A stretch of DNA of 56,025 bases from Fibrobacteria bacterium (GCA_039917895.1 JBDSIO010000409.1:1-56025); one strand, 5' to 3'; numbered from the stretch's first letter, positions 9,742 through 31,782 are shown. Translations and numbers: made by a program. Notes: generated by a model from the sequence alone, not told the origin.

Positions 9742-9818
9742 ATGCGGCCTCCATGGCTGGGCAACGGGTGGCTATCCAATCTAGCAATACCCCGGGAGTT
9801 CCTATCTTTCCCAACCAA

Positions 9819-12110
9819 ATGAAACCGAACCGATTCCTGGAACGCCTCAAAGCCACAGGCGGCGGTAGCCTGCATTCCGCCGCGGCCTATCTGCTGGCCG
9901 TATGGTCGACCCATGCCCTGGTGCGGCTGCTGACGATCTTCCGCGATGACGCGTACGGATTTCCGTTCGTGGGCAAACCCGACTGGTACATTTTCCATGC
10001 CTTCTGCATCGACATCCTGTGGATCATGGGATGGTCCCTGCCGTTCCTGGCCTCCATGCTCCTGCTGCAGGGGATGGGACGGACACGGGGCGCGCATTGG
10101 GCATTGCTTGCCTTGGTTGGGTTCCATTCCGTCTTGCTGCTCTTCGCCGTTTTCGATCAGGAGACCATGCGGTTCCTGGGCATGCATCTAGATCTGGGGC
10201 TGATGTCCACTTATGGGAACGCCTCGTCGATCCGGGAGGTTTTCAAGTTCATCGCCTCCGATGAATCCGTCCGCTATCTGCCTTACCTGATATTCCTCGG
10301 CTGCGTTCCGTTTTCGTTGCTGCTGTTCCGTCTCTTCGCGAAACTGTCCTGGGCCCGGCGGCCGCGCTTCGAAGCCCGCGTGCCCATCATCGTGGCCGCC
10401 GTGGTATTGATCGCGTACGTGTTCCTGAACTTCATCTGGACGGGGGGATTCCGGATGCAGAAACTGAAGCCGTTCACGGCCACGCTGATGGAAGGCCTCA
10501 AACGCAAGCGCGGCAAGCCGCCGGCGCCCATCGCCTTGGCCGCTATGGGCGGCAAGTTCCAAAGGCAATGGCAATTGGAGCAGGGCGACAGCGCCTATGT
10601 CTTTCCCTACCTCGCGCTTCCGTTTTACAAGGTGCCCTTGCAGGCCTACTGCGCCGACGCGGCCACGAGGTCGATTTCCGCAACCGGGAACGCGGCGGCC
10701 AAACAATCCCCTGCCACGGCCGCAACCCTGACGGCAGAATCCGCTTGGACCGATCCGACGGCGCGATGCGCCCGTGATGCCGACGGCGATGGCTCGCTTC
10801 CCGACGTCGATTGCGACGATGCCGATCCCCGTTCGCATCCCGGCGCCAAAGACGCCCCTGGCAACGGGGTGGATGAGGATTGCGACGGCCTCGATGCCAA
10901 CCCCGTGAACATCGTGATGATCCTGATGGAATCCCACCGCGGCGTGAACGCCGGATACCTGCGGCCCTTCGGCGCATTGAAAGGCTTCACCGGTCCCACC
11001 CCGACCCCGGTCCTCGACAGCCTGGCCAATGGACAGTCGCATGCCTGGACCCGCTTCGCCTGTTCCGGCATTCCCACCATCAACGCCCTGATGAGCACGC
11101 ACCTGTCCATCCTGGCGCATCCTACCCGCTACATCGCCAACGATTTCACCACCCTGCGGCACCGCTCCTTCACCGAAGAAATGGGCCGCCACGGCTACCG
11201 CACGCATTTCTTTTCCGCCGCCGATCCCGCCTGGGACGGCCAGGTCCCGTGGTTGCGCCAATGGTACCAGGACATCACCTATGATCGGAGCCGCGAAACC
11301 GACGACGCCATGCTGCGGAACATGGCCGGTTGGATGCGCGACAGCCTGAAAGGCGATCGGCCCTTCCTGGTCACGGCCATGACCAAGACCAACCATTACC
11401 CGTTCAACCCGGAACCCGGCGTACCCGCGACCCCGGACGGCGCCGGGCTGCAGGAAAAGATGCGCGCCACCATGAAATACGCGGACGCGTCGGTGGGCCG
11501 CTTCATCGATTCCCTGCGCAACCAACCCTGGTTCGCGAACACGGTGTTCATCATCCTGGCCGATCACGGCTTTCCCTTGTCCGAACACGGCTCTTCGACC
11601 ATCGGCTTCGGCCTGTATACGGAATCGGTGTGGATCCCCTTCGTGATCGCAGGCACCCATCCCAAATTGGGTCCGGCGGCATTGCATGATTATCCCGCCT
11701 GCCAATTGGACATAGGCCCAACGGTTTTGGACCTGGCCGGAATCCGCGCGGCCAACAACTTTCTGGGCCATAGCCTGGTGCGTCCCGCCACGGGCTTGAA
11801 CAGTGTCAGTTACATCGTACGGGGCGAACAGGGGACTCTGGAGCATGGCGGTTACCGCATCCATGGACCGCTGGGCGAGCAACCTCGGGAGCAGGGTTCC
11901 GAAGTGTTCAACACCTTGGGCGATCGGGTGGAGGCCAATAACCTGTACCCGACCACGGGACAAGCCGTTTACGACTCCTTGCTGCCCTTGCTCCGGAATC
12001 TCGGAGCCTTGAATACCTATGCCGTGGAGGCCAATATCCTGTGGCCGGATTCGACCCGCACAAGCCCTGCGGTCAGCGGTCCCCCGACCGGCTCTCCCAC
12101 CCGCGAATAG
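9819..12110 (+). CDS. LTA-synthase/sulfatase-family membrane enzyme with a Cys/Asp-rich insert
   Basis: The N-terminus is polytopic. The sulfatase core shows NIVMILMESHRG..., TNHYPF and ILADHGFPLSEHG. A DxDGDG...DCDD...PGA...NGVDEDCDG motif lies between the TM region and the catalytic domain. Confidence 0.8.
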   Translation: MKPNRFLERLKATGGGSLHSAAAYLLAVWSTHALVRLLTIFRDDAYGFPFVGKPDWYIFHAFCIDILWIMGWSLPFLASMLLLQGMGRTRGAHWALLALVGFHSVLLLFAVFDQETMRFLGMHLDLGLMSTYGNASSIREVFKFIASDESVRYLPYLIFLGCVPFSLLLFRLFAKLSWARRPRFEARVPIIVAAVVLIAYVFLNFIWTGGFRMQKLKPFTATLMEGLKRKRGKPPAPIALAAMGGKFQRQWQLEQGDSAYVFPYLALPFYKVPLQAYCADAATRSISATGNAAAKQSPATAATLTAESAWTDPTARCARDADGDGSLPDVDCDDADPRSHPGAKDAPGNGVDEDCDGLDANPVNIVMILMESHRGVNAGYLRPFGALKGFTGPTPTPVLDSLANGQSHAWTRFACSGIPTINALMSTHLSILAHPTRYIANDFTTLRHRSFTEEMGRHGYRTHFFSAADPAWDGQVPWLRQWYQDITYDRSRETDDAMLRNMAGWMRDSLKGDRPFLVTAMTKTNHYPFNPEPGVPATPDGAGLQEKMRATMKYADASVGRFIDSLRNQPWFANTVFIILADHGFPLSEHGSSTIGFGLYTESVWIPFVIAGTHPKLGPAALHDYPACQLDIGPTVLDLAGIRAANNFLGHSLVRPATGLNSVSYIVRGEQGTLEHGGYRIHGPLGEQPREQGSEVFNTLGDRVEANNLYPTTGQAVYDSLLPLLRNLGALNTYAVEANILWPDSTRTSPAVSGPPTGSPTRE

Positions 12111-12204
12111 TTCGTTTTAACGGGTTCTAGACGGTTTTTTGGCCTTCTGGAGCGGCCAGCGACCTTGAATTCCCAACGGCTTTATCTATCTTATGCCCCG
12201 CCTT

Positions 12205-12277
<73 letters not shown>

Positions 12278-12290
12278 CCCTTTTCCAAGG

Positions 12291-12356: not shown

Positions 12357-12635
12357 TCATAAGCGCCATGGCGCCCTTGTCCGCCTTGAGGGCCGCCTGA
12401 TTTCTGGATGTGTAAGCATCACGCGAGCCAGCAACTCAGCAGGCGGATCGATGGGAAATCGACCAGCTTCCCACCCTTCCAAAGTTCTCTTGGATACTCT
12501 AAGAGCCATGGCCATTTTTTCTTGAGCTAATTTTAAATCCTGCCGTAGCGTTTTGAACTCAAGCGCTGCTCCTCGGCCTAATCCGGAAAACCCGGATTCA
12601 GAATTAAACAAGCGGACATGGGGTGAATTGCCCAC
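12357..12635 (-). CDS. XRE-family HTH protein, antitoxin-like (COG2944/YiaG-like)
   Basis: EFKTLRQDLKLAQEKMAMALRVSKRTLEGWEAGRFPIDPPAELLARVML is the HTH plus the 'WE.GR..P' signature seen in small antitoxin-type regulators. Confidence 0.6.
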   Translation of the reverse strand: MGNSPHVRLFNSESGFSGLGRGAALEFKTLRQDLKLAQEKMAMALRVSKRTLEGWEAGRFPIDPPAELLARVMLTHPEIRRPSRRTRAPWRL

Positions 12636-12865
12636 AACCCTCCTAACCCACCCATTGCAAAAAGGTTACGTATTGAATTAGCGAATTGTGTGGCCAACTG
12701 CGGGGTGAATGCACCCCAGCAGTATGTCACCCCGTAAAAGATTATTGTGCGATTTCCCTTGATTTCGGGGAAGAATACGATTGGCGTCCCTCTTGCTTTA
12801 TACTCTACCAAGTTCATCTCCCAAATTTCTGGAAATGAATGATATCCATTATCTATATCCTCCAT
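12578..12865 (-). CDS. Hypothetical 95-aa ORF, possibly a degenerate HigB/RelE-like toxin remnant
   Basis: It lies upstream of the HTH gene and overlaps it by 58 nt. Only a weak resemblance exists (VFFPEIKGNRTIIFYGVTY versus the HigB 'VFNIKGNKYRLI..V.Y' segment). The N- and C-terminal parts do not fit. Confidence 0.3.
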   Translation of the reverse strand: MEDIDNGYHSFPEIWEMNLVEYKARGTPIVFFPEIKGNRTIIFYGVTYCWGAFTPQLATQFANSIRNLFAMGGLGGLWAIHPMSACLILNPGFPD

Positions 12866-12882
12866 TTTCGAAAGGGATCAAC

Positions 12883-13242
12883 GTGAAATTTCTCAAGTCT
12901 GTTCTCGGTCTCAGTTTGGCTTTGGCCTCAGGTACTCTCACTGGTTGCCTCTCATCGGAAGGGGAAGCCATGGATAGTTCTTCCGACGCATCCCTGCGCA
13001 CACAGGGGAATGTCAATGAGAGCCAGGGTGGAGAGGTGGGCAAAGTGACGATTTGCCATCTTCCTCCGGGCAACCCTGCCAATGCCCACACGCTTTCGGT
13101 TGGATCTCCAGCCGTGAAAGCTCACCTGGCTCATGGTGATTATCTCGGAGCCTGCGTCGAAGTCCCTCCCGTCGACAACGTCCCTCCCGTCGACAACGTC
13201 CCTCCCGTCAATAACGTCCCTCCCGTCGATAATTTGAACTGA
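12883..13242 (+). CDS. Small lipoprotein with an ICHxPPGNP...AHLxHGDxxGxC motif and a VPPV(D/N)N x4 tail
   Basis: GTG 12883 follows AAAGGGA. The signal plus lipobox is KFLKSVLGLSLALASGTLTGC. The core reads VTICHLPPGNPANAHTLSVGSPAVKAHLAHGDYLGAC. Confidence 0.65.
   Translation: MKFLKSVLGLSLALASGTLTGCLSSEGEAMDSSSDASLRTQGNVNESQGGEVGKVTICHLPPGNPANAHTLSVGSPAVKAHLAHGDYLGACVEVPPVDNVPPVDNVPPVNNVPPVDNLN
13162..13233. repeat. 18-bp tandem repeat x4 (gtccctcccgtcgacaac and variants) encoding VPPVDN/VPPVNN
   Basis: The units are 13162-79, 13180-97, 13198-215 and 13216-233. The first two are identical. Confidence 0.9.
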
Positions 13243-13294
13243 AGGAACCCATTTCCTCTCTCTATTGCTACTGGCAATAGCCTAAGACTCAAAT

Positions 13295-13322
13295 GAAAGC
13301 CGGCTCTCGCCGGCTTTCACGT
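13295..13322 (+). terminator. Stem-loop terminator after the lipoprotein gene
   Basis: gaaagccggc-tctc-gccggctttc is a perfect 10-bp stem. It is followed by acgtttctt, a weak T tract. Confidence 0.55.
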
Positions 13323-13629
13323 TTCTTATCCCGCTAAGATCTTGGCCTCAGATAAACCCTAGAGAATGTAGGGTCCCTCCTCCTACAACCTTCTTTTCTT
13401 ATCCCCGGACTCTCCCGGTGGATCCCCAAACTCAACAATTGGGATACTCCAAGCAGTGAAGGGGGATTGGGTCCCTTTGCCCCCAATCCCTATAACGAAT
13501 GGTGGGATGGCCACTTGCGTCGGTTAATGCAAACGCTATTTACGGTTTATGGGGGCATCCCACCCCAAGGTCTAGGCCAATGAGGAAATGAAAGAGGCTG
13601 AATTAGGGCGCGTTCGAGGAATAACCAAC

Positions 13630-13645
13630 TGGCACTCTGATTGCT
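13630..13645 (+). promoter_or_regulatory. Sigma-54 (-24/-12) promoter
   Basis: cTGGCACtctgaTTGCTt has GG and GC separated by exactly 10 nt. It matches the TGGCAC-N5-TTGC consensus and lies about 75 nt upstream of ATG 13720. Confidence 0.6.
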
Positions 13646-13719
13646 TTATAACAATGCAAGTTCGTTTCTGAATACAAGAGAAGCGACTGATGTCAACCAC
13701 TCCTTTGAAAGGGACAAAC

Positions 13720-14139
13720 ATGAAAAATCTCATCTCCGCTCTCGGACTCAGCTTGGCCTTGGCTTCCGGTGTACTCGCTCAAGGTAAGCCCACCAATCCC
13801 GGTGCTCCCCATGACAGCACCGGTAAGGCTATTTCCGCAACCAAGTATGCCGATGCGATGAGCCACCTTCCCGCAGGCGTAGCGGAAAAAATCGCGGCCG
13901 CCCGTGAAGCCGCCAAAGCCGCCAAGGCCGATGTGGATGCCATGAAATCCCAGGGCAAGACGCCCGAAGAAATCCAAGCCATGATCACGGAAAAGAAGGC
14001 CGCTGCCTTGCTCAACCTGCAGAAGGCTCTCGATGCCCTGGACGGTCTGCCGGACGGCGCCAAGGACCGCGTCACCAAGGCTAAGGACGTAGTCACCAAG
14101 CGCCTCGATGACCGCAAGGCCGACGCTAAGAATCCTTAA
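13720..14139 (+). CDS. Small secreted helical protein (Ala/Lys/Asp-rich), unknown family
   Basis: MKNLISALGLSLALASGVLAQG is a signal peptide resembling that of the 12883 lipoprotein. An AAGGGA RBS is present. This is the first gene after the sigma-54 promoter. Confidence 0.6.
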   Translation: MKNLISALGLSLALASGVLAQGKPTNPGAPHDSTGKAISATKYADAMSHLPAGVAEKIAAAREAAKAAKADVDAMKSQGKTPEEIQAMITEKKAAALLNLQKALDALDGLPDGAKDRVTKAKDVVTKRLDDRKADAKNP

Positions 14140-14151
14140 CGGAACTTGGAT

Positions 14152-14183
14152 ATAGGGCGCCGCTCGAAAGGGTGGCGCCCTAT
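14152..14183 (+). terminator. Intra-operon hairpin (possible attenuator or partial terminator)
   Basis: atagggcgcc-N12-ggcgccctat is a perfect 10-bp stem located 13 nt after the stop codon. No T tract follows. Confidence 0.35.
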
Positions 14184-14254
14184 CCGGCTTCCTATCGGGA
14201 ATTGAATCACGGAGGGCGATCATATCGCCCAATTGTCTTACCCGGAGAAGATGT

Positions 14255-14671
14255 ATGTGGAAACCGCGCGACTTACTGTTCATACTTCCTTGCCTACTTC
14301 TCATAGGTTTCTCGGTGGCGCAGGATAAACCGAACGGGCAGGAAACCTCATCGCCACCGAAAGCGAAAATCGATCCGCCATCCGCAAACCATAAGGCGTA
14401 TGATGCTTTATACTCAGATATCCTCATGTCCTTGCCCCGGGATGGCAAGCTAAAAGTTGATTCCGCGAAATACCATGAGCCCAAAGCGAAACCCGCTCAA
14501 TCGGCCAATCCACTTACAGTGGATGAACTGAAAAATAATGCGGCTGAAAAACGCAAAAAGGAGATGGACGAATTATCACCCGAGGTTAAAGGCCGGGTTG
14601 ACAAGATTCTCTCAGACCTTGATAATAGAAGGAAAGAAAAGCAAACGGAATTCAAGGAGCTGAAAGAATGA
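14255..14671 (+). CDS. Small secreted Lys/Glu-rich protein, unknown family
   Basis: Signal peptide LLFILPCLLLIGFSVAQD. A GGAGA RBS is present. The stop overlaps the next start (ATGA). Confidence 0.55.
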   Translation: MWKPRDLLFILPCLLLIGFSVAQDKPNGQETSSPPKAKIDPPSANHKAYDALYSDILMSLPRDGKLKVDSAKYHEPKAKPAQSANPLTVDELKNNAAEKRKKEMDELSPEVKGRVDKILSDLDNRRKEKQTEFKELKE

Positions 14672-15360
14672 AATGGGCAATGCTTGGATATACCATCCTT
14701 TCCCTTACGGTCTCCGTTTTCTCGGGGACTGTTTCAGATCCCAATCTTGGATATGCAATCACCCTGCCTTCAAGTTGGGTCCAGTTGAAAACAAAACCCG
14801 AACAACACTATTTCCGGGACGGTGCGAAACAATACCGTAGCCAGATTTCCATCCTTAAGTATGCCATAGACAATGCCTCCTACCCAACCCCGGAAAGTTG
14901 GACCCAGGCCCAATTCATTGCCTATAAATTGAGTGTCGAGACGTCTTCCTATCCGTTTGGAGCAATTGCTTACTTCGACTCCACATCTACGGAAAAGTTG
15001 GGTACAGCTTGGGCGCCGGAAGCCTTTTCAGTGCTTTATCCCGCCGATGGAACTCCCACCTATTGCGAGTATATGCGATACTGCGCCGTTGGGAGCACCG
15101 GCTATGAAATTTATGCCATCGGCGATTCCACGGACATGACCACGAATGTGGATTTTTACGCAAGCATTATCTCAACCTTGCAATTTTCGACGCCGAACGT
15201 CAGCATCGCGCCACTCATATATGCAAACCCCATCCTAAAAGGGAACGAAGTTCATTTCAATACCTTCGATCTCTCGGGCCGGAAAATCCCGAAATCAATG
15301 CTTTCGCAGGGCTTCCGTACGCTTGCCTCGCAGCGGTTTATTTCTAAAGTATCGCGCTGA
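14668..15360 (+). CDS. Secreted protein, unknown family
   Basis: Signal-like N-terminus MKWAMLGYTILSLTVSVFSG. It has a 4-nt overlap with the upstream gene. Confidence 0.6.
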   Translation: MKWAMLGYTILSLTVSVFSGTVSDPNLGYAITLPSSWVQLKTKPEQHYFRDGAKQYRSQISILKYAIDNASYPTPESWTQAQFIAYKLSVETSSYPFGAIAYFDSTSTEKLGTAWAPEAFSVLYPADGTPTYCEYMRYCAVGSTGYEIYAIGDSTDMTTNVDFYASIISTLQFSTPNVSIAPLIYANPILKGNEVHFNTFDLSGRKIPKSMLSQGFRTLASQRFISKVSR

Positions 15361-15396
15361 ATTCCTGCATTTTGAAGTGGTATAATTAGCTCTATC

Positions 15397-17007
15397 ATGA
15401 TTTTTAACCAACGGAGCGCCCTGTGGGCGTTTCCGATTATTTTTGGATTTCTCTTGTTCCGGTCCGGGTCCGCCGAACCGGATTCCTTTTCCGGCTCTCC
15501 TGCCATTGATCCAGATGGATTTCAAGCTATTGCCATACAGGGAGCGCTTGCCCTCGAAGAAAATAGGCCGGACACCGCCCTGGAACTTTTCATGGAAGCC
15601 CAACGACGTGGTATGTCGAAGGATAGCCTCTACTACTTCCTGGCTGAAGCCGCTCTCACGCACTCTGCCTTAGACACGGCCATGGCATTCAATCTTTCCA
15701 TCCATCCCCCAAAGGAAGGTCCGTTCCGTGAATCGGTTTTGAACCAGAGATATAGGCTATATACGCAAACCGGCTTGAGCAAGGACGCAGAAGCGATTGC
15801 CGATTCCCTATTAAATAAACCGACGCGAGTTTCAAAAAAGAACCATGAGTTCAACATCCTGTTTTCCTCTGGATATAATCGGGAGGACAATTACTCCGCG
15901 ACCGACTATCCATTCGGCACCGACCTTGGCGGCTTCCTCTCCAAGGGGCCGCAATACCGTAACCGAGCCCAACTTCTTTGGCCTCTTCTGCAAACCTGGA
16001 AAATCCCATGGAGCGGAGGCATCGAATACGACTTGATCAAATCCTACGCCAAAGATTCTCTCGACTACCGAGTTGGACTGATATTAAAAGCGGACAATTT
16101 CTTCTACGAGGGAGTAACTCTGGCATTTGCCCCGGAACTGGGAAAGATAACAGGTACGGGATTGGTTTCAGCATACAAGATCGAGTCCTCATACCTTTCC
16201 CTTTCCGAGATTTATATCACCATGATCCAAGGCGGATTTGAATCGGAATGGAACAGCGATTGGGGAAACCGATTTTCCGGATTCTGGGTGTCCTTTTATC
16301 AGGATCGCTCCTTGAGGACAGGAAGGGGAATCAATTATTCGCTTTCCCTTTCGGGTATCCTGGTCGATCCGGTTCACGAAGCAAATACCCAAAAAGTCCT
16401 GTATGTGGATGACGTGACAAAATCGAAGCCTACGCATTACCGCGACAGCAGCTTTCAGGATACCTTGCCGAGTAATGGAATCTCGACCTTCCTCAGGTAC
16501 ACGTCCAACACCGGGCTCAGTCAATCTTCGACGCTATCTCCGCAAGGAGTCCTGACGTTCCTTCCAACTTTCGGATATAGCTTTCCCCTTCCATTTTCAT
16601 TCTCGTGCGAAATTGGAAGCATGTATGCGCTGAATGTTTATCCCAACGACTACGAATGGACGGAAGCCGCCTTGCCGGATAGCTTCGCGGCAGCCTCCGC
16701 AGGCTTCCGGGGATTTGCCAAGAACAAAACCGATGGTAAAGAATATGCGGCGGTTATTATCCAAGAAAACGGAGGCTTCCAAGAGCATTACGGCCAATCT
16801 CCGGCTAGCGCCAAGACACGACTGCGAATCGACCATCAATTAGGCGCTGACTTTTCATTGCGTCGTAAACTTTCGAAATGGGGAACAATCTCCATCGATG
16901 GAATGGCGAAGAGGAACTGGTCGACCCTTGCGGGTTCCACTCCAATCTGGATCCCAAGGTGGGATCTGGGAGTAGCATTCAAATGGCGCCGGGGTTGGAA
17001 TTGGTGA
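15397..17007 (+). CDS. Putative outer-membrane protein: N-terminal TPR-like helices plus a beta-rich C-terminal region ending in an aromatic residue
   Basis: A signal peptide is present. The helical region includes ALELFMEAQRRGMSKDSLYYFLAEAAL. The rest is long and Y/S/G/F-rich with alternating character, ending ...GVAFKWRRGWNW*. Confidence 0.55.
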   Translation: MIFNQRSALWAFPIIFGFLLFRSGSAEPDSFSGSPAIDPDGFQAIAIQGALALEENRPDTALELFMEAQRRGMSKDSLYYFLAEAALTHSALDTAMAFNLSIHPPKEGPFRESVLNQRYRLYTQTGLSKDAEAIADSLLNKPTRVSKKNHEFNILFSSGYNREDNYSATDYPFGTDLGGFLSKGPQYRNRAQLLWPLLQTWKIPWSGGIEYDLIKSYAKDSLDYRVGLILKADNFFYEGVTLAFAPELGKITGTGLVSAYKIESSYLSLSEIYITMIQGGFESEWNSDWGNRFSGFWVSFYQDRSLRTGRGINYSLSLSGILVDPVHEANTQKVLYVDDVTKSKPTHYRDSSFQDTLPSNGISTFLRYTSNTGLSQSSTLSPQGVLTFLPTFGYSFPLPFSFSCEIGSMYALNVYPNDYEWTEAALPDSFAAASAGFRGFAKNKTDGKEYAAVIIQENGGFQEHYGQSPASAKTRLRIDHQLGADFSLRRKLSKWGTISIDGMAKRNWSTLAGSTPIWIPRWDLGVAFKWRRGWNW

Positions 17008-17696
17008 AATCAAAGCGCGGAAACGGGAATAAAGGAAATCGGAGTTGCGTTGTTGCGACGGTAGCGTTATCTCTGGTACTACTTGCGTGCGACCAGAACG
17101 AAATCGAAAAAGGCCGGATCAGTCTGAGTCTAGGGGATTATCCCATGGCTACCCGGTTCTTCCAGACGGCCGTGGAAAGGAGTCCCTAACTCTATGACGC
17201 TCGATTGGGACTTGGCCAAGCTTTGCTCCAAAAAGCCTTCGCGGAAGGCGATAGCGCCGCCTTCAATTATGCACTTATCCAGCTCGAAGCCTGCCGCAGC
17301 CTTGCGCCTTCGCAGGATCTTTCCGAACTCCTTACCGACGCTTATTATGAGCACGCACGTTACCAATTGAAGAGCCGGGACACCGTTTCCGCCCTAATCT
17401 CATTATCCAAAGCCATTGACCGTGGGCCACTGAATCCGCGCCCCTTGAATCTGGTCGGAATAGTATACGGAAAGCTGGGGGAAGCGGAGAAAGCGGAAGC
17501 CATATTCCAAAAAGTCCTGCGGCTGGACAGCTCGGACGCTTCCGCCAATTTCAACTTAGGCATGATCCATTGGCAAGCAGGAGAAACGAGGCCTGCGCAT
17601 GAACAATGGCTTAAAGCCCTTAAAGCGCTTCCCAACGATGAGGATGTCCTTTATTGGTTCGCCCTTTCGGAGAAAAAACTGAGGGAAACGCAATGA
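17004..17696 (+). pseudogene. TPR lipoprotein interrupted by a single in-frame TAA (17187-17189)
   Basis: A GTGA overlap with the upstream stop gives the start VKSKRGNGNKGNRSCVVATVALSLVLLAC (lipobox). Track ORFs 16878..17189 and 17205..17696 are in the same frame. Reading through gives ...FFQTAVERSP*LYDARLGLGQALLQKAF..., a continuous TPR sequence. Confidence 0.6.
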
Positions 17697-19063
17697 TCCC
17701 TAAGCTGCCGAAAGCATTTTCCCACCCTATGATCATCGGAGAAGGATCGTTTTCATCCGTATACCGGGTCAGGCAAAAGAGCTTGGACCGCTGGGTAGCC
17801 GTAAAAATAATCAACGAAAAAAACGCGGCGCGCAGGCATGAGGTATTAAGCGAAGCCAGGAACCAGGCGCAAATGCCTATCGCCTGTATTCCCTCCGTAT
17901 TCGATGCTTTTCAGCTAGGTCAGCGGGTTTTCATCATCATGGAGTGGGTCAAAGGCGCGACATTGTTATCGCTTTTGGAAAAAGGCATCCCAAACAAGGC
18001 TGACCGCGCTGCTATTGGCTTTGGCATCATCTCGGCATTGGCTGGATTGCACAAACTCGGATTTGCACATAGGGATTTAAAACCCGCCAATATACTAGTC
18101 ACCCCTGAGGCGGGAATATACCTGGTCGACTTTGGGTTCTCCAAAAAAATCGGAGAGAGCGGCCAGTCCATAGTGGGCATGGTCAAAGGGACACCGGCTT
18201 ATATGGCGCCGGAAATCTGGCAGGGAGCGGGAAGTCCTGATTTCATGAAAGCGGATCTTTTCGCTTTGGGGAAAATCCTGCAAGAGCTTGATCCGGCACC
18301 GGAATGGAAAGGGATTTCCCAACCGCTCATGTCGCTCGATCCGAACCACCGCCCGGATTCCGCCGTGGTTTTGTGGGATCGATGCCAGTCCTTACCCATT
18401 TCCCGGATGACTCAGGAAGGAAAGGCTTCAGTCAATTGGATCTCTTCCGAATTACTCTCGCGGCGCCTATTGCAGGCCGCCAAACAACTGCTTTTTGCGA
18501 AGCGTAGTGAAGAGGCCTATTGGCTTCTGGCTGAATGCCTTCAAGAAGACCCGGATGCCGCGGAAGCTATGCAATTGCTGGAAACCTTCCCGGCACTCTC
18601 CAAGGAGAAAAAGCGGCGGCAATGGGTGATTTCAATGGCAACGGCCGCCGGATTTATTGTCGCGATGCTTTTGGCTTTCCATTACGGAAAAAGCTCCGAG
18701 AGGGGCAAACGGTACGTCTCAGTCAGCGCTGAAGAAAATTCCAAAATCCTCCTGCTTCCCGGTATGAAAGATGGAAAGCGAGCCGTGAAAGGTGCGGCTA
18801 AATTCCTGGAGTTGGCCACCGTAGAAAACAGCCTCATGGGGCTGATATTCATTGAAGGCGCGGAACAATGCGATAAACTTTCCCTGGATGGGCGAGTAGT
18901 CCGCACACCCGCACCTAGTGGGTTGCCCACGGCTTCCGGCGAACACGTCCTACTTTGCAACGACCGCTTCGGGTCCCTTAATTACCGGGAAAAGTTGACA
19001 ATACTTCCCTTCCAGCGGAAAATCATCCGCATTCACGACAAGGTTTCAAAAAAGGAGGCGTAG
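17693..19063 (+). CDS. Hanks-type Ser/Thr protein kinase with one TM helix and a C-terminal extracytoplasmic region
   Basis: IGEGSFSSVY, WVAVKII, HRDLKPANILV, DFGFSKK and GTPAYMAPE. The TM helix is WVISMATAAGFIVAMLLAFHY. There is an ATGA overlap with the TPR gene. Confidence 0.85.
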   Translation: MIPKLPKAFSHPMIIGEGSFSSVYRVRQKSLDRWVAVKIINEKNAARRHEVLSEARNQAQMPIACIPSVFDAFQLGQRVFIIMEWVKGATLLSLLEKGIPNKADRAAIGFGIISALAGLHKLGFAHRDLKPANILVTPEAGIYLVDFGFSKKIGESGQSIVGMVKGTPAYMAPEIWQGAGSPDFMKADLFALGKILQELDPAPEWKGISQPLMSLDPNHRPDSAVVLWDRCQSLPISRMTQEGKASVNWISSELLSRRLLQAAKQLLFAKRSEEAYWLLAECLQEDPDAAEAMQLLETFPALSKEKKRRQWVISMATAAGFIVAMLLAFHYGKSSERGKRYVSVSAEENSKILLLPGMKDGKRAVKGAAKFLELATVENSLMGLIFIEGAEQCDKLSLDGRVVRTPAPSGLPTASGEHVLLCNDRFGSLNYREKLTILPFQRKIIRIHDKVSKKEA

Positions 19064-19064
19064 A

Positions 19065-20882
19065 ATGCCCCCCAACACATTCCCTCTTTTACGAAATGAA
19101 GAAGACCGCTCGGAAACCATCATATCCGGCAGGATATTCACTTTCGGCGGTTCACAAGATTGCGGCCTGAAGTTGCACGGCAAAGGCCTTCCCGCAATTA
19201 TCGGGCATTTCCTTTTCAGGGAAGGAGGATACCACGTCCAGGCTCTGACCCAAGGCTTCCGAATCAAACTGAATGGCCGCGAGATTACCGGCGCCGCCGA
19301 TTTGCACCATGGAGATCGGCTACAATTGGGTCAAACCGTTTTTCTATTTCTCCAGGGTCCGTTTGAAGAAGGTAAGGCAGATTTTGAAGGAGGAACCGAA
19401 ACTCAGGCTTCGGAACCCCTCACGGACCTTATCAATGCCGTTGTGACATTACTCCGTGAACGGGACTCGGATGTATTCCACTCCCTAGTCCTTTGCGTGT
19501 CGCGACTTCTAAAATGCGATGCGGCTCGTGTGGTGGAAGAAGACCCGGAAACGAACGCAAGATCCACGATCGCGAGGTATCCGGCCCATTCGGGTCTGGA
19601 ACGATTTTCGGATCGAGCAATTGATTGGTCCAAGGCTTCACCCCATGCCGTGCTTATGAAAGAAACGGATTGGGAAGATCAGAATTCAATCAGTTCCCTC
19701 CACAAAAATGCGGTAGCTTCGGTTTTATGCGTCGCATTACGCGAAGCGGATAACATAATCGGTTACCTCTACATGGACCGACTGGGCGGTAACCTCCCAT
19801 TCTCCGAGAGGGAACGCGAACTATGCGACTCGCTAGGGAGGCTTTTCGGGGAAATTCTTTCCCATAGACTGGCCCTAGGAAGGCAGAAGGACGCAATCGC
19901 CCGATTGCAAAGCAATAGCCTTGCTACCGGATCAGGCATCATCCATTCCAGTCCCGTTATGGTCAAGGTCCTGGATCTGGCCCTACGAATAGCCCGAACC
20001 GACGGAACCGCAATCATTAGAGGAGAAACCGGAACCGGAAAGGAAGTATTGGCGAGATTTGTCCATATGAATTCCATGAGGGCGAAAAAACCGTTCCATG
20101 CGCTTAACTGCGGAGCCATTCCGGAAAACCTGATCGAATCGGAATTGTTCGGGCATGAGAAAGGCGCCTTCACCGGGGCGGATCAACGTAAGATAGGCCT
20201 GTTCGAATCCGCTAATGGGGGTACCCTTTTCCTTGATGAAATCGGCGACCTACCCTTAAACCTCCAGGTCAAACTCTTGAGGGTGTTGCAGGAGTCGGAG
20301 ATAACCCGATTGGGGAGCCCTAATCCTATCAAGGTTGATGTCCGAATCCTGTCCGCAACCCACAGGATCCTCGCCACCGAAGTGCGGGAAGGCCGTTTTC
20401 GACAGGATCTTTTTTTCCGCCTTTCGGTTTTGGAGCTGGAATTGCCGCCATTGCGCGAACGGGATCAGGATGTGCTGCTGCTTTCGGATTTCTTACTCAA
20501 AAAATACTTGCAACAGTTTGGCCTACCCGCTAAATCCTTTTCGGTTGCAGCGCGCAATAAGCTTCTGGGGTATGCCTTTCCTGGAAATGTCAGGGAGCTG
20601 GAGAACGTCATCCAAAAGGCCATTCTGCTTTCCAATTCCAAGCAAATCAACGTCGAGGATCTTCAATTGGAGGTTAGTGGGAATTCGGAAGGACGAATGA
20701 GCAGTTCCATTAAGTCCTTAAAAGAAATCCGGTTTGAAACGGAAAAGATGGCTATTGACGCGGCTTTAACCAAGACTAAGGGAAATGTGTCACTTGCGGC
20801 GAAGATGCTGGATATCGACCGTAAATGGCTGATGAAATTGATGGAAGAAGCAGGGCTGCAGGCCGATGAATACAGAAAATAA
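19065..20882 (+). CDS. Sigma-54-dependent transcriptional activator with N-terminal FHA and GAF domains
   Basis: FHA-like N-terminus (IFTFGGSQDCGLKL...HGDRLQLGQTVFLF); GAF-like middle region; AAA+ GETGTGKEVLA, ESELFGHEKGAFTGA (GAFTGA) and RQDLFFRL; a Fis-type HTH at the C-terminus. The start is 1 nt after the kinase stop and has an AAAGGAGG RBS. Confidence 0.9.
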   Translation: MPPNTFPLLRNEEDRSETIISGRIFTFGGSQDCGLKLHGKGLPAIIGHFLFREGGYHVQALTQGFRIKLNGREITGAADLHHGDRLQLGQTVFLFLQGPFEEGKADFEGGTETQASEPLTDLINAVVTLLRERDSDVFHSLVLCVSRLLKCDAARVVEEDPETNARSTIARYPAHSGLERFSDRAIDWSKASPHAVLMKETDWEDQNSISSLHKNAVASVLCVALREADNIIGYLYMDRLGGNLPFSERERELCDSLGRLFGEILSHRLALGRQKDAIARLQSNSLATGSGIIHSSPVMVKVLDLALRIARTDGTAIIRGETGTGKEVLARFVHMNSMRAKKPFHALNCGAIPENLIESELFGHEKGAFTGADQRKIGLFESANGGTLFLDEIGDLPLNLQVKLLRVLQESEITRLGSPNPIKVDVRILSATHRILATEVREGRFRQDLFFRLSVLELELPPLRERDQDVLLLSDFLLKKYLQQFGLPAKSFSVAARNKLLGYAFPGNVRELENVIQKAILLSNSKQINVEDLQLEVSGNSEGRMSSSIKSLKEIRFETEKMAIDAALTKTKGNVSLAAKMLDIDRKWLMKLMEEAGLQADEYRK

Positions 20883-21049: not shown

Positions 21050-21397
21050 ATGGAGCCTTATATGCGTTCGAGAGTTACCGATGTTTTGCCTTCCATTGTA
21101 AAACGTTCGTTAGCCAAGTTCGGCAGCGATCTCGCAACTGCGCGCCGGAAGCGCAGGCTTACAACAATCGCCGTCGCCAGGCGCATGGGTGTGGCGAAGA
21201 ACACCTACCTTCGCGTGGAAAAAGGCGACGCCAGGGTTGGTTTCGGAATATACGGCATGGCGCTGTTTGTACTCGGCTTCGGCGATCCATTCAGCTCGCT
21301 CATCGATGTAAGTCGTGACGATACGGGTCTCCTACTTGATGAAGAGCGACTGCCCAAGCGGGTGCGTATGAAGAAGTCACGGATGCCTCCGCCATGA
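21050..21397 (+). CDS. XRE-family HTH regulator, HipB-like antitoxin
   Basis: RRKRRLTTIAVARRMGVAKNTYLRVEKGD is an HTH. The stop overlaps the hipA start (ATGA). Confidence 0.7.
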   Translation: MEPYMRSRVTDVLPSIVKRSLAKFGSDLATARRKRRLTTIAVARRMGVAKNTYLRVEKGDARVGFGIYGMALFVLGFGDPFSSLIDVSRDDTGLLLDEERLPKRVRMKKSRMPPP

Positions 21398-22671
21398 AAC
21401 GCACCATTGAAGTTATTGTGGATAACGGTCCGCAGATCGGCATTATGCGCTATGACCTCCAAGGTAGGCGCGAAAATGCCGCCTTCGAATACGGCGCGAG
21501 CTGGCTCAGCGCCGAAACCCGTTTTGCGCTAGGGCCGACGCTTCCGCTCACGGCCGGGCTCCAATTCCATCGTAAGACGAGTGACGGTTCCATTTTTCAT
21601 GCGGCAATCGCCGATACCGAACCTGATGGTTGGGGCCGGCGGATCATCATGCGCGATCACGCAAAGCGCAGGCATGAGACCCGACCCGGTGGCAAAGAGA
21701 AAAGCTCCCAGCCCCTAAATGCGCTTGATTATCTCCTCGCCGTAGATGATTTCAGCCGAGTCGGGGCCCTGCGTTACCGCGATGAAGGAGGATTGTTCCA
21801 GCGCGCGCCTGAAGCAGGCCGCCGCACGGCTCCGCCTCTAATCGAGTTGGGGCAAATATTGAACGCCTCCCGTGCCGTCGAGTCCAACCGGGAAACAGCG
21901 GCCGACCTCGCCTATTTGCGCGTACGAGGCACATCGCTTGGCGGATTGCGCCCAAAGTGCACAGTCATTGACAATGACGGCGCGCTGGCAATCGGCAAAT
22001 TCCCGAGCATCGCGGACGAGCGTGCCGTTACGAAAGGAGAGGTTCTCGCCCTGACGCTTGCGGGAAAGGCTGGTATCAACGCCGCCAATGCGCGAATAAT
22101 TGAAAGCGAAAGCTCGCCCGTCGCCTTGATACGCCGCTTTGACCGACGAGGCGGCAGGCGCATTATGTACATCTCTGCTGCAACCCTGCTCGGGGTCGAA
22201 GCGACGGAGCCTGGGGACCATTTCTATACGGAGATTGTGGATGCTATCCGGGTGCATGGTGCAGACGTACAAGCGGACATCGAGGAATTGTGGCGGAGAA
22301 TCGCCTTCTCCATCCTCATCACCAATGTCGACGATCATCTGCGCAACCATGGATTTCTGCATGAGGATCGCGGATTCTGGCGGCTTTCGCCCGCTTTCGA
22401 CATCAATCCCACGCCCGAACGATCGCGCGAATTGAAAACTTGGATATCAGAGGATACAGGGCCGGAAATGAATGTTAACGCGCTGATGTCGGTGATCCCT
22501 AAATTCGGAATCACGCAAGTTCGCGCCAAGGAGATTTTACGCCAGGTCGAGCGCGCGGTGGGAGACTGGCGTAAAACAGGAAGGGAGATCGGCATGACCG
22601 ATGGGGAACTCGAGGCATTTACGGATGCGTTCGAGCATGAAGAACGGGCCACGGCGAAAAGGTTGATTTAA
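21394..22671 (+). CDS. hipA: HipA-family Ser/Thr kinase toxin
   Basis: GTSLGGLRPKCTV, GKFPS..DE and NVDDHLRNHGFL...LSPAFDINP are HipA N- and C-domain signatures. Confidence 0.85.
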   Translation: MKRTIEVIVDNGPQIGIMRYDLQGRRENAAFEYGASWLSAETRFALGPTLPLTAGLQFHRKTSDGSIFHAAIADTEPDGWGRRIIMRDHAKRRHETRPGGKEKSSQPLNALDYLLAVDDFSRVGALRYRDEGGLFQRAPEAGRRTAPPLIELGQILNASRAVESNRETAADLAYLRVRGTSLGGLRPKCTVIDNDGALAIGKFPSIADERAVTKGEVLALTLAGKAGINAANARIIESESSPVALIRRFDRRGGRRIMYISAATLLGVEATEPGDHFYTEIVDAIRVHGADVQADIEELWRRIAFSILITNVDDHLRNHGFLHEDRGFWRLSPAFDINPTPERSRELKTWISEDTGPEMNVNALMSVIPKFGITQVRAKEILRQVERAVGDWRKTGREIGMTDGELEAFTDAFEHEERATAKRLI

Positions 22672-26531: not shown

Positions 26532-28670
26532 TCAGGCGTGAACGCCGACCGCCAGGATTTCGCGCACCTTTGAAATCAAATCGGCAGGCGAAAAGGGTTT
26601 CTGGAGGAATGCGATTTCCGGATTCCCGCTTTCCTTAGAAACCAAGGCGTCCCTGGTATATCCGGAAATGAAAAGCAATTTTACCTTCGGGTGGATGAGC
26701 TTCAATTCCCCTGCCAGGAATCCCCCATTCATATTGGGCATGATCACATCGGTAATGAGCAAATCGAGGCGCTCGGTTTGGCCCGCCAACTTTAGCGCTT
26801 CGACGCCGTCACCGGCTTCAACCACCTTGTAACCGTGGTTCTTCAGGGTCATGCTCAGGAATTTCCGCACGGCGGGTTCGTCCTCCGCAAGCAGAATGGT
26901 TTCGGCCTGGAATGACCTTCCCGCAACCGCCGGCGCCTGCTCCTCCTTGTTGGGCATCCCTTTCCGGTTCACCAACGGGAAGTATAGCTTGAAGCTGGTC
27001 CCCTTCATGGGCTTGCTCGTAACCTCGATGCTTCCTCCGCTCTGCTTGACAATTCCGTAAACGCTGGAAAGCCCGAGCCCGGTTCCCTTGCCGATTTCCT
27101 TGGTGGTGAAGAAGGGTTCGAAAATCTGGGCCAGTATTTCCGGAGTCATGCCCACCCCGCTATCGGAGACGCTGAGCATGGCATGGGGGCCGGGCGAAGC
27201 ATCCGGATGATCTGCGATATGGCCGCTTTCCAGGTTCACATTGGCGGTTTCAATGCGGAGAGAGCCCCCGTCGGGCATGGCATCCCGCGCGTTCAGGACC
27301 AGATTCATGATGATTTGCTGGATCTGCGCGGGATCCGCCCGCACCGGGCCGATCAATGGATCAAGCAGAGTGTAGAAAAGGATATCCTCTCCAATAAGCC
27401 GACGGAGCATTTTTTCGATCTCGGTAATGCATCCGTTCAAATCCAGGATCTTGGGGGCGAGGATTTGTTTGCGGCTGTAGGCCAGCAATTGCTGGGTGAG
27501 CGCGGCGGCCCGTTTTCCCGACTTGCCGATTTCCTCCAGGTATTCAGCTACCGTGGAATCCTTGGCGGTTTCAGCCAGCGCCATTTCCGTGAAACCGTTG
27601 ATCGAGGTCAGGAGATTGTTGAAATCATGGGCAATGCCTCCCGCCAGCCTTCCCACGACTTCCATTTTTTGCGCCTGACGCAGCTGCTCTTGGGCGAAAT
27701 TGATATCCGTGATATCCCTGGCGATTTTGGAAGCGCCCACAATTGTGCCATTGGCGTCTTTGATGGGTGAAACAGTCAGGGAAATCTGGATGAGCGAACC
27801 GTCTTTCCGGCGCCGGACGGTTTCGTAGTGATTGATGGTTTGCCCCCGTTGTATGCGTCCCAGGATTTCCGGTTCTTCATTCTGGTGGTTTTCCGGGATG
27901 AGGACGGTGATCGGTTTACCGATCATCTCCTCCGCGGTATATCCGAACATGCGCTCAGCGGAAGCGTTCCAGCTCATAACGATGGAATTCAGGTTCTTGC
28001 TGATAATGGCATCGTTGGAGGATTTGACGATAGCGGCGAACTTCCGCGCGTCTTCCTCCCTTTGATTGCCCACCCTGATTTCCTTCTGCAGGGAATTATA
28101 AAGTTCCGCAGTCTCTATCGACACCGTCGCTTGGGAGGCCAGGGCTATGAGCGATTTTTCCGCCTCCTTGGTGAAGAAGGCGGGTTCCCCGTGGCAATAG
28201 AAAAGCCCGCCCAGGATTTCGCCGGATCGGGAAACCACCGGAACGGCAAGACAGCTGCGCATGGGAATATCTCCCTGCTGCAGACATTGGGGGAGAGTGG
28301 AATCCTCAAGCGGCGGTTGGAGCGCCAAGTCATCGATTCTCAGCGATCCCTTGCCATTGAAGATGCGGATGAACATCGAGGGTTCCAATGTCTCGACGAA
28401 ATCGGCGCATACCTCACGGGCCATGCCTGAGAGCGCATGCAGCACGATGAAATTCCCGGTATCCGCTGAAATCGCGTAGAAAAATGCACCGCTATAGGCG
28501 TGGGAGATTGCCTTTCCGGCATCCGTGACGGTTTCGGCGATTTTTCGGAAATCATGCTCGGTAACAAGGGCTTCGGCGGTTCTTCTCAGGATTTCAACGC
28601 TGTCGGCATACTCTTGATACTTTTTTTCCGCGGCTTCGAGGCGGGCGACTAAAGAAGCTGAATCAGGCAT
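26532..28670 (-). CDS. Hybrid sensor histidine kinase (GAF-PAS-HisKA-HATPase-REC)
   Basis: PAS (SWNASAERMFGYTAEEMIGKP...DGSLIQISLTVSPIKD); H-box GGIAHDFNNLL; N/G boxes (LNARDAMP, DSGVGM, GTGLGLS); receiver LLITDVIMPNMNG...LQKPF. Confidence 0.85.
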   Translation of the reverse strand: MPDSASLVARLEAAEKKYQEYADSVEILRRTAEALVTEHDFRKIAETVTDAGKAISHAYSGAFFYAISADTGNFIVLHALSGMAREVCADFVETLEPSMFIRIFNGKGSLRIDDLALQPPLEDSTLPQCLQQGDIPMRSCLAVPVVSRSGEILGGLFYCHGEPAFFTKEAEKSLIALASQATVSIETAELYNSLQKEIRVGNQREEDARKFAAIVKSSNDAIISKNLNSIVMSWNASAERMFGYTAEEMIGKPITVLIPENHQNEEPEILGRIQRGQTINHYETVRRRKDGSLIQISLTVSPIKDANGTIVGASKIARDITDINFAQEQLRQAQKMEVVGRLAGGIAHDFNNLLTSINGFTEMALAETAKDSTVAEYLEEIGKSGKRAAALTQQLLAYSRKQILAPKILDLNGCITEIEKMLRRLIGEDILFYTLLDPLIGPVRADPAQIQQIIMNLVLNARDAMPDGGSLRIETANVNLESGHIADHPDASPGPHAMLSVSDSGVGMTPEILAQIFEPFFTTKEIGKGTGLGLSSVYGIVKQSGGSIEVTSKPMKGTSFKLYFPLVNRKGMPNKEEQAPAVAGRSFQAETILLAEDEPAVRKFLSMTLKNHGYKVVEAGDGVEALKLAGQTERLDLLITDVIMPNMNGGFLAGELKLIHPKVKLLFISGYTRDALVSKESGNPEIAFLQKPFSPADLISKVREILAVGVHA

Positions 28671-28848
28671 TTTTTACCCACATTTAAACTGGATCCATAG
28701 CAAATTAAAAGTTCCGGATTCATCTCCTAGATTTTTATCGGAAATTTTGGGAATTTGGCAGGAAATTAATAGGGCAGGATATTTAAGGAGGGTGTCTCAT
28801 GGGGTCTGGGGAATGTCCAGGTGGGTGACCGGTTCCGCCCGGTTTCCT

Positions 28849-31715: not shown

Positions 31716-31782
31716 CCCAAGCCCTGAAATTTGGCTCCAGTGGGCTGAATGCGTATCTTGGGGCAATCGGGGCCTGAAAGCC

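Follow-up and report, generated by a model that had tools for sequence, protein, structure and literature searches.

The locus treated here lies in a 56,025-nucleotide (nt) stretch of DNA from a Fibrobacteria bacterium (GCA_039917895.1, JBDSIO010000409.1:1-56025), which we call the window, and it raises the question of how a tightly packed run of genes for envelope proteins, a Hanks-type Ser/Thr kinase, and a sigma-54 enhancer-binding protein is controlled and what the run does for the cell. A preliminary description had bounded the unit at 13630–20882 and had listed seven genes (here G1 to G7) behind one -24/-12 promoter. The seven-gene run stands, and so does its framing as a conserved operon that is headed by a sigma-54 promoter and closes with the Hanks kinase and the enhancer-binding protein. 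The full extent does not, because the cassette exceeds these coordinates: the description had missed (i) an eighth gene, designated G0, with its own promoter, and the putative enhancer dyads of both promoters, all within 12620–13566; and (ii) a nonsense codon in G5. We consider it probable (about 0.6) that the locus is an eight-gene envelope module, specific to Fibrobacterota, under its own sigma-54 activator. The regulatory architecture of the cassette is well supported.

The conserved synteny that had been proposed as a check on the unit was found: G1–G7 are colinear in approximately 20 loci between unrelated flanking genes, and their order is kept down to a G4 identity of 24%. A protein search with G4 returned 36 relatives, all unnamed or annotated as hypothetical proteins, and those with a named source organism came from metagenome-assembled genomes (MAGs) of Fibrobacteres or Fibrobacteria. 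Contig look-ups gave the same gene order in five loci (L001, L003, L005, L006, and L008), with wholly different flanks at each and with products of approximately 139, 135, 228, 535, 235 (TPR), 455 (Pkinase), and 607 (Sigma54_activat) residues. In a scan of one genome per GTDB species, 17 cassette loci were found, all of them in Fibrobacterota MAGs (Fibrobacteria, Chitinivibrionales, and Chitinispirillaceae), and tblastn recovered G1–G7 in colinear order in these 17 loci wherever the contig reaches, even at G4 identities of 24–26%. Paper searches found no description of the cassette in the literature.

The features of the cassette, with their positions in the window, are as follows.

12620..12635, putative distal enhancer dyad of the G0 promoter, GGGGTGAATTGCCCAC, which departs from GGGG-N8-CCCC at one position, 163 nt 5' of the -24 GG
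12702..12717, putative proximal enhancer dyad of the G0 promoter, GGGGTGAATGCACCCC, 81 nt 5' of the -24 GG
12782..12796, plus strand, second sigma-54-type -24/-12 promoter (P_G0), TGGCGT-N5-TTGC
12883..13242, plus strand, G0, 119-residue lipoprotein with lipobox LTGC
13294..13319, plus strand, terminator-like hairpin 3' of G0, an 11-base-pair (bp) stem followed by a T-rich tail
13469..13484, putative distal enhancer dyad of the G1 promoter, GGGTCCCTTTGCCCCC, 162 nt 5' of the -24 GG
13551..13566, putative proximal enhancer dyad of the G1 promoter, GGGGGCATCCCACCCC, 80 nt 5' of the -24 GG
13630..13644, plus strand, sigma-54-type -24/-12 promoter (P_G1), TGGCAC-N5-TTGC
13720..14139, plus strand, G1, 139-residue secreted Ala/Lys/Asp-rich protein, predicted helical
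14148..14185, plus strand, GC-rich stem-loop directly 3' of the G1 stop codon
14255..14671, plus strand, G2, 138-residue secreted protein, paralogue of G1
14668..15360, plus strand, G3, 230-residue secreted protein with a predicted PsbP/Mog1/DcrB-like fold at residues ~20–170
15397..17007, plus strand, G4, 536-residue predicted outer-membrane protein with signal peptide, TPR-like domain, and beta-barrel
17004..17696, plus strand, G5, TPR lipoprotein gene with lipobox LLAC and an in-frame TAA at 17187–17189
17693..19063, plus strand, G6, bitopic Hanks-type Ser/Thr kinase
19065..20882, plus strand, G7, enhancer-binding protein with FHA-like, GAF, AAA+, and HTH_8 domains

The gene junctions are as first described: three pairs of genes overlap by 4 nt, through ATGA at 14668/14671 and 17693/17696 and through GTGA at 17004/17007; a single nucleotide separates the genes at 19063/19065; and the two remaining gaps measure 115 nt and 36 nt. 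Two observations concern individual copies of the cassette in other genomes. Locus L007 (ENA contig_13483) has the cassette with G4–G7 broken into many short open reading frames (ORFs), probably through frameshift errors in assembly. Loci L013 and L014 are two different cassette copies on two contigs of one MAG (CTOTU41470), with G4 proteins 54% and 51% identical to that of the window, the outcome of a duplication or of a mixed bin.

Promoters, dyads, and hairpins

The site TGGCACTCTGATTGC at 13630–13644 (plus strand) is an exact match to TGGCAC-N5-TTGC with GG and GC 10 nt apart, as the preliminary description had it, and no other site in the 56 kb of the window matches, even if one mismatch is tolerated. 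In 14 independent Fibrobacterota loci, a -24/-12 element lies 56–92 nt (mostly 80–92 nt) 5' of the G1 start; the GG-N10-GC spacing is identical in 14/14, and the sequence of the N5 spacer is free to vary. An alignment of the G1 upstream regions displays the element in all of the first seven loci, with conserved palindromes further 5'. The ATG at 13720, previously taken as the first start codon, is the conserved start of G1 and is preceded by a conserved ribosome-binding site, GAAAGGGA. The second promoter, P_G0 (TGGCGT-N5-TTGC, 12782–12796), is followed by TTTATA, the same as at P_G1, and homologous G0 promoters are present in L005, L007, L008, and L010. The predicted transcription starts are at ~13656 for P_G1 and at ~12808 for P_G0.

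Could the -24/-12 match be a product of chance, with the genes transcribed from ordinary sigma-70-type promoters? Shuffled sequence yields a mean of 3.9 motif matches per window when one mismatch is allowed, and several sigma-70-like hexamer pairs occur inside the operon, both of which are in keeping with such a reading. By contrast, the exact motif is unique in the window, it occupies the same place in 14 diverged loci in which the surrounding sequence is not conserved, a further copy, with dyads in the same arrangement, stands before G0, and an activator with a GAFTGA motif is encoded in the operon. Because the promoter is kept in sequence and position in 14 loci and the gene order in approximately 20, we take the motif to be more than a chance match, and consider a fortuitous one very improbable.

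Both promoters in the window are accompanied by dyads of the form GGGG-N8-CCCC that start 80–81 nt and 162–163 nt 5' of the -24 GG. The aligned dyads read as a 16-bp consensus, GGGGTG-N4-CACCCC, and their centres fall at approximately -98 and -180 relative to the predicted start. Among the 14 G1 promoters, the proximal dyad lies 78–81 nt 5' of the GG in 13, and the distal dyad 160–172 nt 5' of the GG in 13; the promoter of L016 is devoid of the distal dyad, in place of which a second one lies at 99 nt. The separate G0 promoters share this layout, with dyads at 80–81 nt and 161–163 nt. Outlying dyads at 69, 91, 150, and 173 nt are about one helical turn off the norm, which is the shift expected if the face of the helix matters. 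Promoter and dyad are combined at only two sites in the window, compared with a mean of 0.165 in 200 dinucleotide shuffles, and across the window and all 20-kb flanks the combined signature is essentially confined to the regions 5' of G0 and G1. The dyads are probable activator sites, and the two conserved dyads upstream of the promoter fit the earlier proposal that the operon is driven by its own activator, which would bind there. A metagenome-wide DNA scan for regulon members with the pattern GGGG-N8-CCCC-N61-64-TGGCAY-N5-TTGCT found no cassette genes 3' of the pattern among the 80 matches listed, merely generic AAA+; the pattern is too unspecific for that collection.

Two hairpins structure the predicted transcripts. 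Hairpins that resemble the terminator-like one after G0 occur in relatives. The GC-rich stem-loop after G1 is strong and is present in 10/11 loci, with a conserved structure and a sequence that differs between loci; in L003, L006, and L016 a T-run comes after it, as in a terminator. A further hairpin lies at 14214–14230. The stem-loop after G1 probably serves to attenuate transcription or to stabilise the mRNA. Because it is conserved directly after G1, G1 is probably made in excess of G2–G7, and autoregulation of the kinase and the activator needs read-through. The positive autoregulation of the preliminary description thus survives in part: the promoter and the dyads fit it, but it depends on read-through of a stem-loop that is terminator-like in some relatives.

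The kinase and the activator

The assignment of G6 as a Hanks kinase was confirmed by a Pfam match to Pkinase (PF00069, 3.4e-37) and by a full set of catalytic motifs, namely VAVK with the catalytic Lys, HRDLKPAN, DFG, and APE, that is to say, the kinase is catalytically complete. A single transmembrane helix (residues 311–331 of 456; nt 18623–18685) agrees with the membrane anchor described before, and the portion outside the membrane, previously put at approximately 110 residues, is corrected to 125. This ectodomain matched no Pfam family and no solved structure; PEGA or another known domain was considered for it and dropped because the profile and structure searches gave nothing. The kinase may sense an envelope signal, as the preliminary description proposed, although the ectodomain offers no family from which to argue this. 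The G6 and G7 genes are adjacent and co-oriented in every locus.

G7 is an enhancer-binding protein, as was first stated, with Pfam matches to Sigma54_activat (PF00158, 1e-68), HTH_8 (7.5e-8), and AAA_lid_14, with a GAFTGA motif (nt 20163–20180) and with Walker A and B motifs (GETGTGKE and LFLDEIG). An FHA-like domain (residues ~1–100) and a GAF domain (~125–265) precede the AAA+ domain and the C-terminal HTH_8. The earlier reading of the N-terminus as FHA followed by GAF falls below threshold in the window protein alone, in which the Pfam scores are 16.4 bits versus a cutoff of 20.7 for FHA (PF00498), 20.2 versus 33.2 for Yop-YscD_cpl, and 19–21 versus 22.4 for GAF; it holds at the level of the family. 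Among 16 G7 orthologues, whose N-terminal alignment was built from translations of the loci, Yop-YscD_cpl was matched in 16/16 (best 4.6e-11), FHA in 13/16 (best 4.8e-8), and GAF in 15/16 (best 6.4e-8), and the N-terminal family profile matches the FHA domains of EmbR (2.2e-6), Ki-67, and GarA in the PDB. On the strength of these matches, across the orthologues and to EmbR, Ki-67, and GarA, we regard the FHA-then-GAF architecture as real for the family as a whole. Queried with residues 1–285 of G7, a protein search gave 3 matches and missed known orthologues, so that it was uninformative.

FHA domains read phosphothreonine through the Arg of the GR loop and the Ser of the SxxH motif. The preliminary description had carried this property over to G7, for which the alignment gives no support. 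In the HMMER alignment, the GR-loop Arg of EmbR is aligned with a variable G/S/A/T in the G7 family (G29 in the window protein), and the SxxH Ser with a conserved Pro (P43). In an alternative register, which makes the invariant H48 the FHA His, the place three residues N-terminal of it is occupied by I, V, R, L, or H, and never by Ser. The invariant residues of the FHA-like domain are G22-R23, T26, G28, H48, and G54, and the G22-R23 pair lies five residues upstream of the canonical GR position. The GAF domain is very strongly conserved in the 16 orthologues. Its invariant residues include C151, D152, R155, R180, F181, S182, D187, W203, C222, G233, Y234, Y236, D238, and C254, with three Cys (151, 222, and 254) and several Asp and Arg among them.

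The envelope products and the genomic context

The five products encoded upstream of the kinase gene had been described as envelope proteins that belong to no named family, and searches of Pfam and NCBIfam profiles agree with this. None of the six envelope products, with G0 included, matched an enzyme family in Pfam or NCBIfam.

G4, previously described as a TPR plus barrel-like protein, was modelled with AlphaFold2 from 29 sequences at a mean predicted local distance difference test (pLDDT) value of 85.7, and the model bears this description out. It consists of TPR-like helices at residues 42–137 and a barrel at residues 151–536 with ~18–20 predicted strands, followed by a C-terminal Trp, and has the appearance of a TPR domain in the periplasm joined to a barrel in the outer membrane. 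In a set of 1.84 billion proteins, the G4 family accounts for no more than 177 cluster representatives at E ≤0.001; its full-length members mostly have ~500–590 residues, and some shorter fragments occur. G4 has no Pfam or NCBIfam match, and ten distant members gave weak TPR matches at most. The top Foldseek matches of the model include BcsC, PelBC, and AlgE, with FapF also listed, all at template-modelling (TM) scores ≤0.33. Identification of G4 as Slam, BcsC, or PgaA was rejected on the grounds that the similarity is that of barrels in general and that no Pfam family is matched.

The G4 and G5 genes are translationally coupled through their GTGA overlap. G5 was rightly described as a TPR lipoprotein gene, but its reading frame is not intact: TPR-like sequence runs on beyond the in-frame TAA, and the downstream part is well conserved. 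The gene is intact in all 18 relatives, which have a sense codon (CAG, GAA, GGN, GAY, and others) in the column of the TAA. The TAA is a recent single-base nonsense mutation or a sequencing or assembly error.

G1 is among the best-conserved products of the cassette, with 65–90% identity among the closer relatives. A comparison with hhalign identified G1 and G2 as paralogues (probability 97.3%, E 1.6e-11), each with two LPxGx-type motifs, which are not LTXXQ motifs, and neither has a Pfam or NCBIfam match. Spy, CpxP, and ZraP were considered as identities for them and discarded, as no such chain was present among the PDB profile matches at E values up to 10; nor did any other solved structure prove similar.

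The G3 model, from 39 sequences at a pLDDT of 79, adopts a predicted PsbP/Mog1/DcrB fold. Its best structural match is the cyanobacterial PsbP in PDB 2xb3 (E 2.7e-8, target-normalised TM score 0.77, root mean square deviation 3.0 Å), and DcrB, LpqN, Tsi3, and EagT6/SciW are also matched. The sequence remains below the Pfam threshold (1.3e-4 for the best member, and 13.8 bits versus a cutoff of 23.5 for the window protein). The C-terminal tail of G3 is disordered and has approximately 60 residues, among which G204 is invariant and R205 and D201 are nearly so, in a motif FDxxGR. To the eye alone, this otherwise variable tail (window 15265–15357) resembles the end of a sorting domain of the type IX secretion system; that candidate was rejected, with no match of the Por_Secre_tail type in 16 members at E values up to 1 in Pfam and up to 10 in NCBIfam.

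G0 was recognised from the ORF 12781–13242, which has homologues in most loci; its true start is the GTG at 12883, behind the same GAAAGGGA ribosome-binding site as in G1. The protein contains an invariant Cys/His motif, KVxICHxPPGNPANxHxxxVGxPAVxAHxAHGDxLGxC, and a Pro-rich C-terminal tail of four VPPVDN units, and it matched no Pfam family and no PDB entry. The tail is encoded by four tandem 18-nt repeats (13162–13233), and relatives have tails of the PPxDN type of varying length. The position of G0 is less fixed than that of the other genes: it lies 5' of G1 in the window, L001, L005, L007, L008, and L010; between G3 and G4, there without a promoter of its own, in L006, L013, and L016; and downstream on the opposite strand in L015.

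Taken together, these products could be read as an export or assembly apparatus, in which G1, G2, and perhaps G0 would be abundant secreted or surface subunits, G4 and G5 an outer-membrane conduit and its pilot, and G3 a periplasmic chaperone, with the two regulators switching the apparatus on. Curli, Fap, and the TPR-porin modules of synthase-dependent polysaccharide export would be loose analogues. The order of first gene, stem-loop, and accessory genes is the usual layout of a major subunit followed by its assembly factors; the best structural matches of G4, its coupling to G5, and the membership of the chaperones EagT6 and SciW among proteins of the PsbP/DUF1795 fold point in the same direction. 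However, (i) the TM score is ≤0.33 to every export porin; (ii) no synthase, glycosyltransferase, protease, or ATPase gene is present in the cassette in any locus, and the adjoining genes include neither a synthase nor a glycosyltransferase; (iii) the identity of 65–90% among G1 proteins is unusual for an exposed surface subunit; and (iv) G1 and G2 are predicted to be helical, and neither amyloid-like nor pilin-like. We regard the export reading as unlikely.

The same six products could alternatively serve as accessories of the sensor, that is to say, G0–G5 would be envelope co-sensors upstream of the kinase, in the manner of TagQ, TagR, TagS, and TagT ahead of PpkA-Fha1 in the H1 type VI secretion pathway of Pseudomonas aeruginosa, and the key targets of G7 would be found at other places in the genome. 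In favour of this arrangement, the six envelope products have the look of scaffolds or binders (TPR, PsbP fold, and small helical proteins) and not of enzymes, their genes are inseparable from those of the kinase and the activator in approximately 20 loci, and the kinase ectodomain is small and without a family, so that it may need partners. The near-absence of the promoter-plus-dyad signature outside the regions before G0 and G1 in the window and the 20-kb flanks speaks against distant targets, and the stem-loop implies a large excess of G1, which would be odd for a co-sensor. A co-sensing role is, moreover, compatible with the preferred reading of an envelope module under its own activator, since CpxP and ZraP each act as an output and also as a modulator through feedback. 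As a separate explanation, we find it distinctly unlikely.

The surroundings of the cassette bear on a further possibility, that it is a defence system or the cargo of a mobile island. A gene for transfer RNA (tRNA), tRNA-Ala(GGC), lies at 12204–12280 and a minus-strand gene for an XRE-type HTH protein at 12357–12635, a HipB/HipA toxin-antitoxin pair (21050–22671) follows just downstream of the cassette, and the G+C content is 0.51 in the cassette versus 0.59 in the flanks. On the other side, the PADLOC matches are limited to the generic kinase and AAA+ domains and include none of G0–G5, a search of the window for an att-like repeat of the tRNA 3' end gave nothing, the ORFs scanned include no integrase, and elsewhere the G+C content of the cassette is within ~0.04 of that of its flanks in 10/11 loci and differs by 0.05 in L024. 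An anti-phage system was rejected because of the generic nature of the PADLOC matches, and a genomic island integrated at tRNA-Ala because of the missing repeat and because the G+C dip is particular to the window. Defence or island cargo is thus barely credible as an account of the cassette, and a recent lateral acquisition in this genome is possible. Other neighbours in the window are a 785-residue sulfatase-domain protein with a MopE-type metal-binding motif (9753–12110), two hybrid histidine kinases with GAF/PAS, HisKA, HATPase, and receiver domains (26532–30549, minus strand), and a CheB methylesterase (31627–32883); these sulfatase, hybrid kinase, and CheB neighbours are not conserved beside the cassette elsewhere.

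Proposed mechanism and comparison with known systems

In the mechanism that we propose for an envelope module under its own activator, G7 would bind the dyads as a dimer or higher oligomer and activate both promoters through DNA looping. P_G0 would drive the single lipoprotein gene G0, with transcription ending at the terminator-like hairpin. P_G1 would drive G1, and most transcripts would stop at, or gain stability from, the stem-loop after G1, with read-through leading to lower, autoregulated levels of G2–G7. Because their genes are adjacent in every locus, the G6 kinase would control G7. The coupling may take the form of direct phosphorylation of G7 or of a docking that is independent of phosphorylation; both are more likely than classical reading of phosphothreonine, since the canonical Arg and Ser are missing from the FHA-like domain. 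The GAF domain would constitute a second, cytoplasmic input and is expected to keep the AAA+ domain inactive, as happens in NorR and PexR. G4, G5, and G3 may form an inducible complex of the outer membrane and periplasm that acts, with abundant G1 and G2, in envelope maintenance or stress protection. The module would then be wired like ZraPSR, Cpx, and Psp, with a Hanks kinase replacing the histidine kinase. We favour this role because no envelope product is a recognisable enzyme and all of them look like scaffolds or binders; drawn by analogy, it is the weakest step of the explanation.

Several points weigh against this account. No rpoN gene was found among the window ORFs scanned, and the cassette contains no phosphatase gene. 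The assignment of the dyads to G7 draws solely on co-conservation. The FHA-like domain appears, from its alignment, to be devoid of the canonical phosphothreonine-binding Arg and Ser, so that invariant adjacency is the only tie between the kinase and the activator, which is guilt by association. If the stem-loop after G1 should act as a full terminator, as it may, G2–G7 would need another promoter and the autoregulation would fail. The interruption of G5 may mean that the module is partly inactive in this organism, or that the contig is in error. The analogy with stress responses is one of architecture and not of homology, G1 and G2 being unlike Spy, CpxP, and ZraP.

A bolder version of the account is that the cassette encodes an undescribed envelope apparatus of the Fibrobacterota, made up of the G4 barrel, the lipoproteins G5 and G0, the PsbP-fold protein G3, and an abundant G1/G2 pair, and set by a one-step transmembrane route from the kinase to the sigma-54 activator in which a degenerate FHA-like domain that does not read phosphothreonine is combined with a second, cytoplasmic signal through GAF. 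This version is tentative and, on balance, doubtful; if true, it would represent a new coupling of eukaryote-like kinases to sigma-54 transcription.

How does the cassette compare with what has been described? NtrC-like activators with an N-terminal FHA domain and presumed Hanks-kinase partners were reportedly found in Myxococcus xanthus by Jelsbak, Givskov and Kaiser in 2005. G7 resembles them in that an FHA-type domain takes the place of the receiver in a host that uses eukaryote-like Ser/Thr kinases. It differs in that (i) in every locus the gene immediately 5' of it encodes the kinase and has the same orientation; (ii) a GAF domain is placed between the FHA-like and AAA+ domains, and the canonical phosphothreonine-binding Arg and Ser are missing; and (iii) the target promoters and putative dyads can be read from the sequence, in the phylum Fibrobacterota. 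FHA-domain sigma-54 activators have been recognised in myxobacteria for approximately twenty years; to our knowledge, the kinases that partner them, the DNA sites at which they act, and the way in which they are controlled are largely unassigned. The cassette is a compact and comparatively validated case in which a single kinase and a single activator are encoded together with two promoters and a defined 16-bp dyad, so that the kinase-activator pair could be rebuilt and tested in a heterologous host, and the loss of the canonical phosphate-binding residues raises the question of how such FHA-like domains signal.

ZraPSR, CpxP-CpxAR, and PspF-PspA are enterobacterial envelope stress systems, of which Zra and Psp rely on sigma-54 with an enhancer-binding protein. 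The likeness is that an autoregulated envelope circuit has, as its first or principal product, a small, abundant, helical protein that is periplasmic or peripheral, a place that G1 would take here. By contrast, the sensor is here a Hanks kinase, G1 and G2 lack LTXXQ motifs and profile similarity to Spy, CpxP, or ZraP, and there are further genes in the cassette for an outer-membrane barrel, for two lipoproteins, and for a protein of the PsbP fold. The lipoprotein and periplasmic proteins encoded with a bitopic Hanks kinase and a partner with an FHA domain recall the TagQRST-PpkA-Fha1 system of Pseudomonas aeruginosa, in which threonine phosphorylation controls the H1 type VI secretion system post-translationally and which includes a PP2C phosphatase. 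In the cassette, by contrast, the FHA-like domain is part of a transcription activator, phosphatase genes are absent at the loci examined, and contig look-ups found no type VI secretion genes at the cassette loci.

In NorR and PexR, the GAF domain autoinhibits the ATPase (PMC2941729, PMC12754779), and these GAF-AAA+-HTH activators have several dyad-symmetric enhancers upstream of a sigma-54 promoter (PMC2831303, PMC2941729, PMC12754779). G7 likewise has a GAF domain before the AAA+ domain, and its conserved Cys and Asp residues give it a general resemblance to the metal- or redox-sensing GAF domains of NorR and PexR. It differs from both in having an extra FHA-like domain and a dedicated kinase, and in having two dyads per promoter in place of three. 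Like BcsC, PelB/PelC, PgaA, and AlgE/AlgK, G4 would join a periplasmic TPR domain to a large barrel with a TPR lipoprotein gene next to it, but the low TM scores, the lack of a family match, and the lack of a synthase gene nearby set it apart. G3 agrees with the PsbP/Mog1/DcrB (DUF1795) proteins in its fold, and differs from them in its sub-threshold sequence and its extra 60-residue tail.

The Fibrobacterota are known for polysaccharide degradation, and their cell surfaces are poorly studied; in this phylum, the cassette flags six co-regulated envelope families without annotation, including a rare family of outer-membrane barrels. There are precedents for FHA-domain activators and for GAF-controlled ones, as well as for sigma-54 envelope circuits with autoregulation and for kinase-FHA pairs. 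What is new is their combination, the restriction to Fibrobacterota, the degenerate FHA-like domain, and the six unannotated, co-regulated envelope families.

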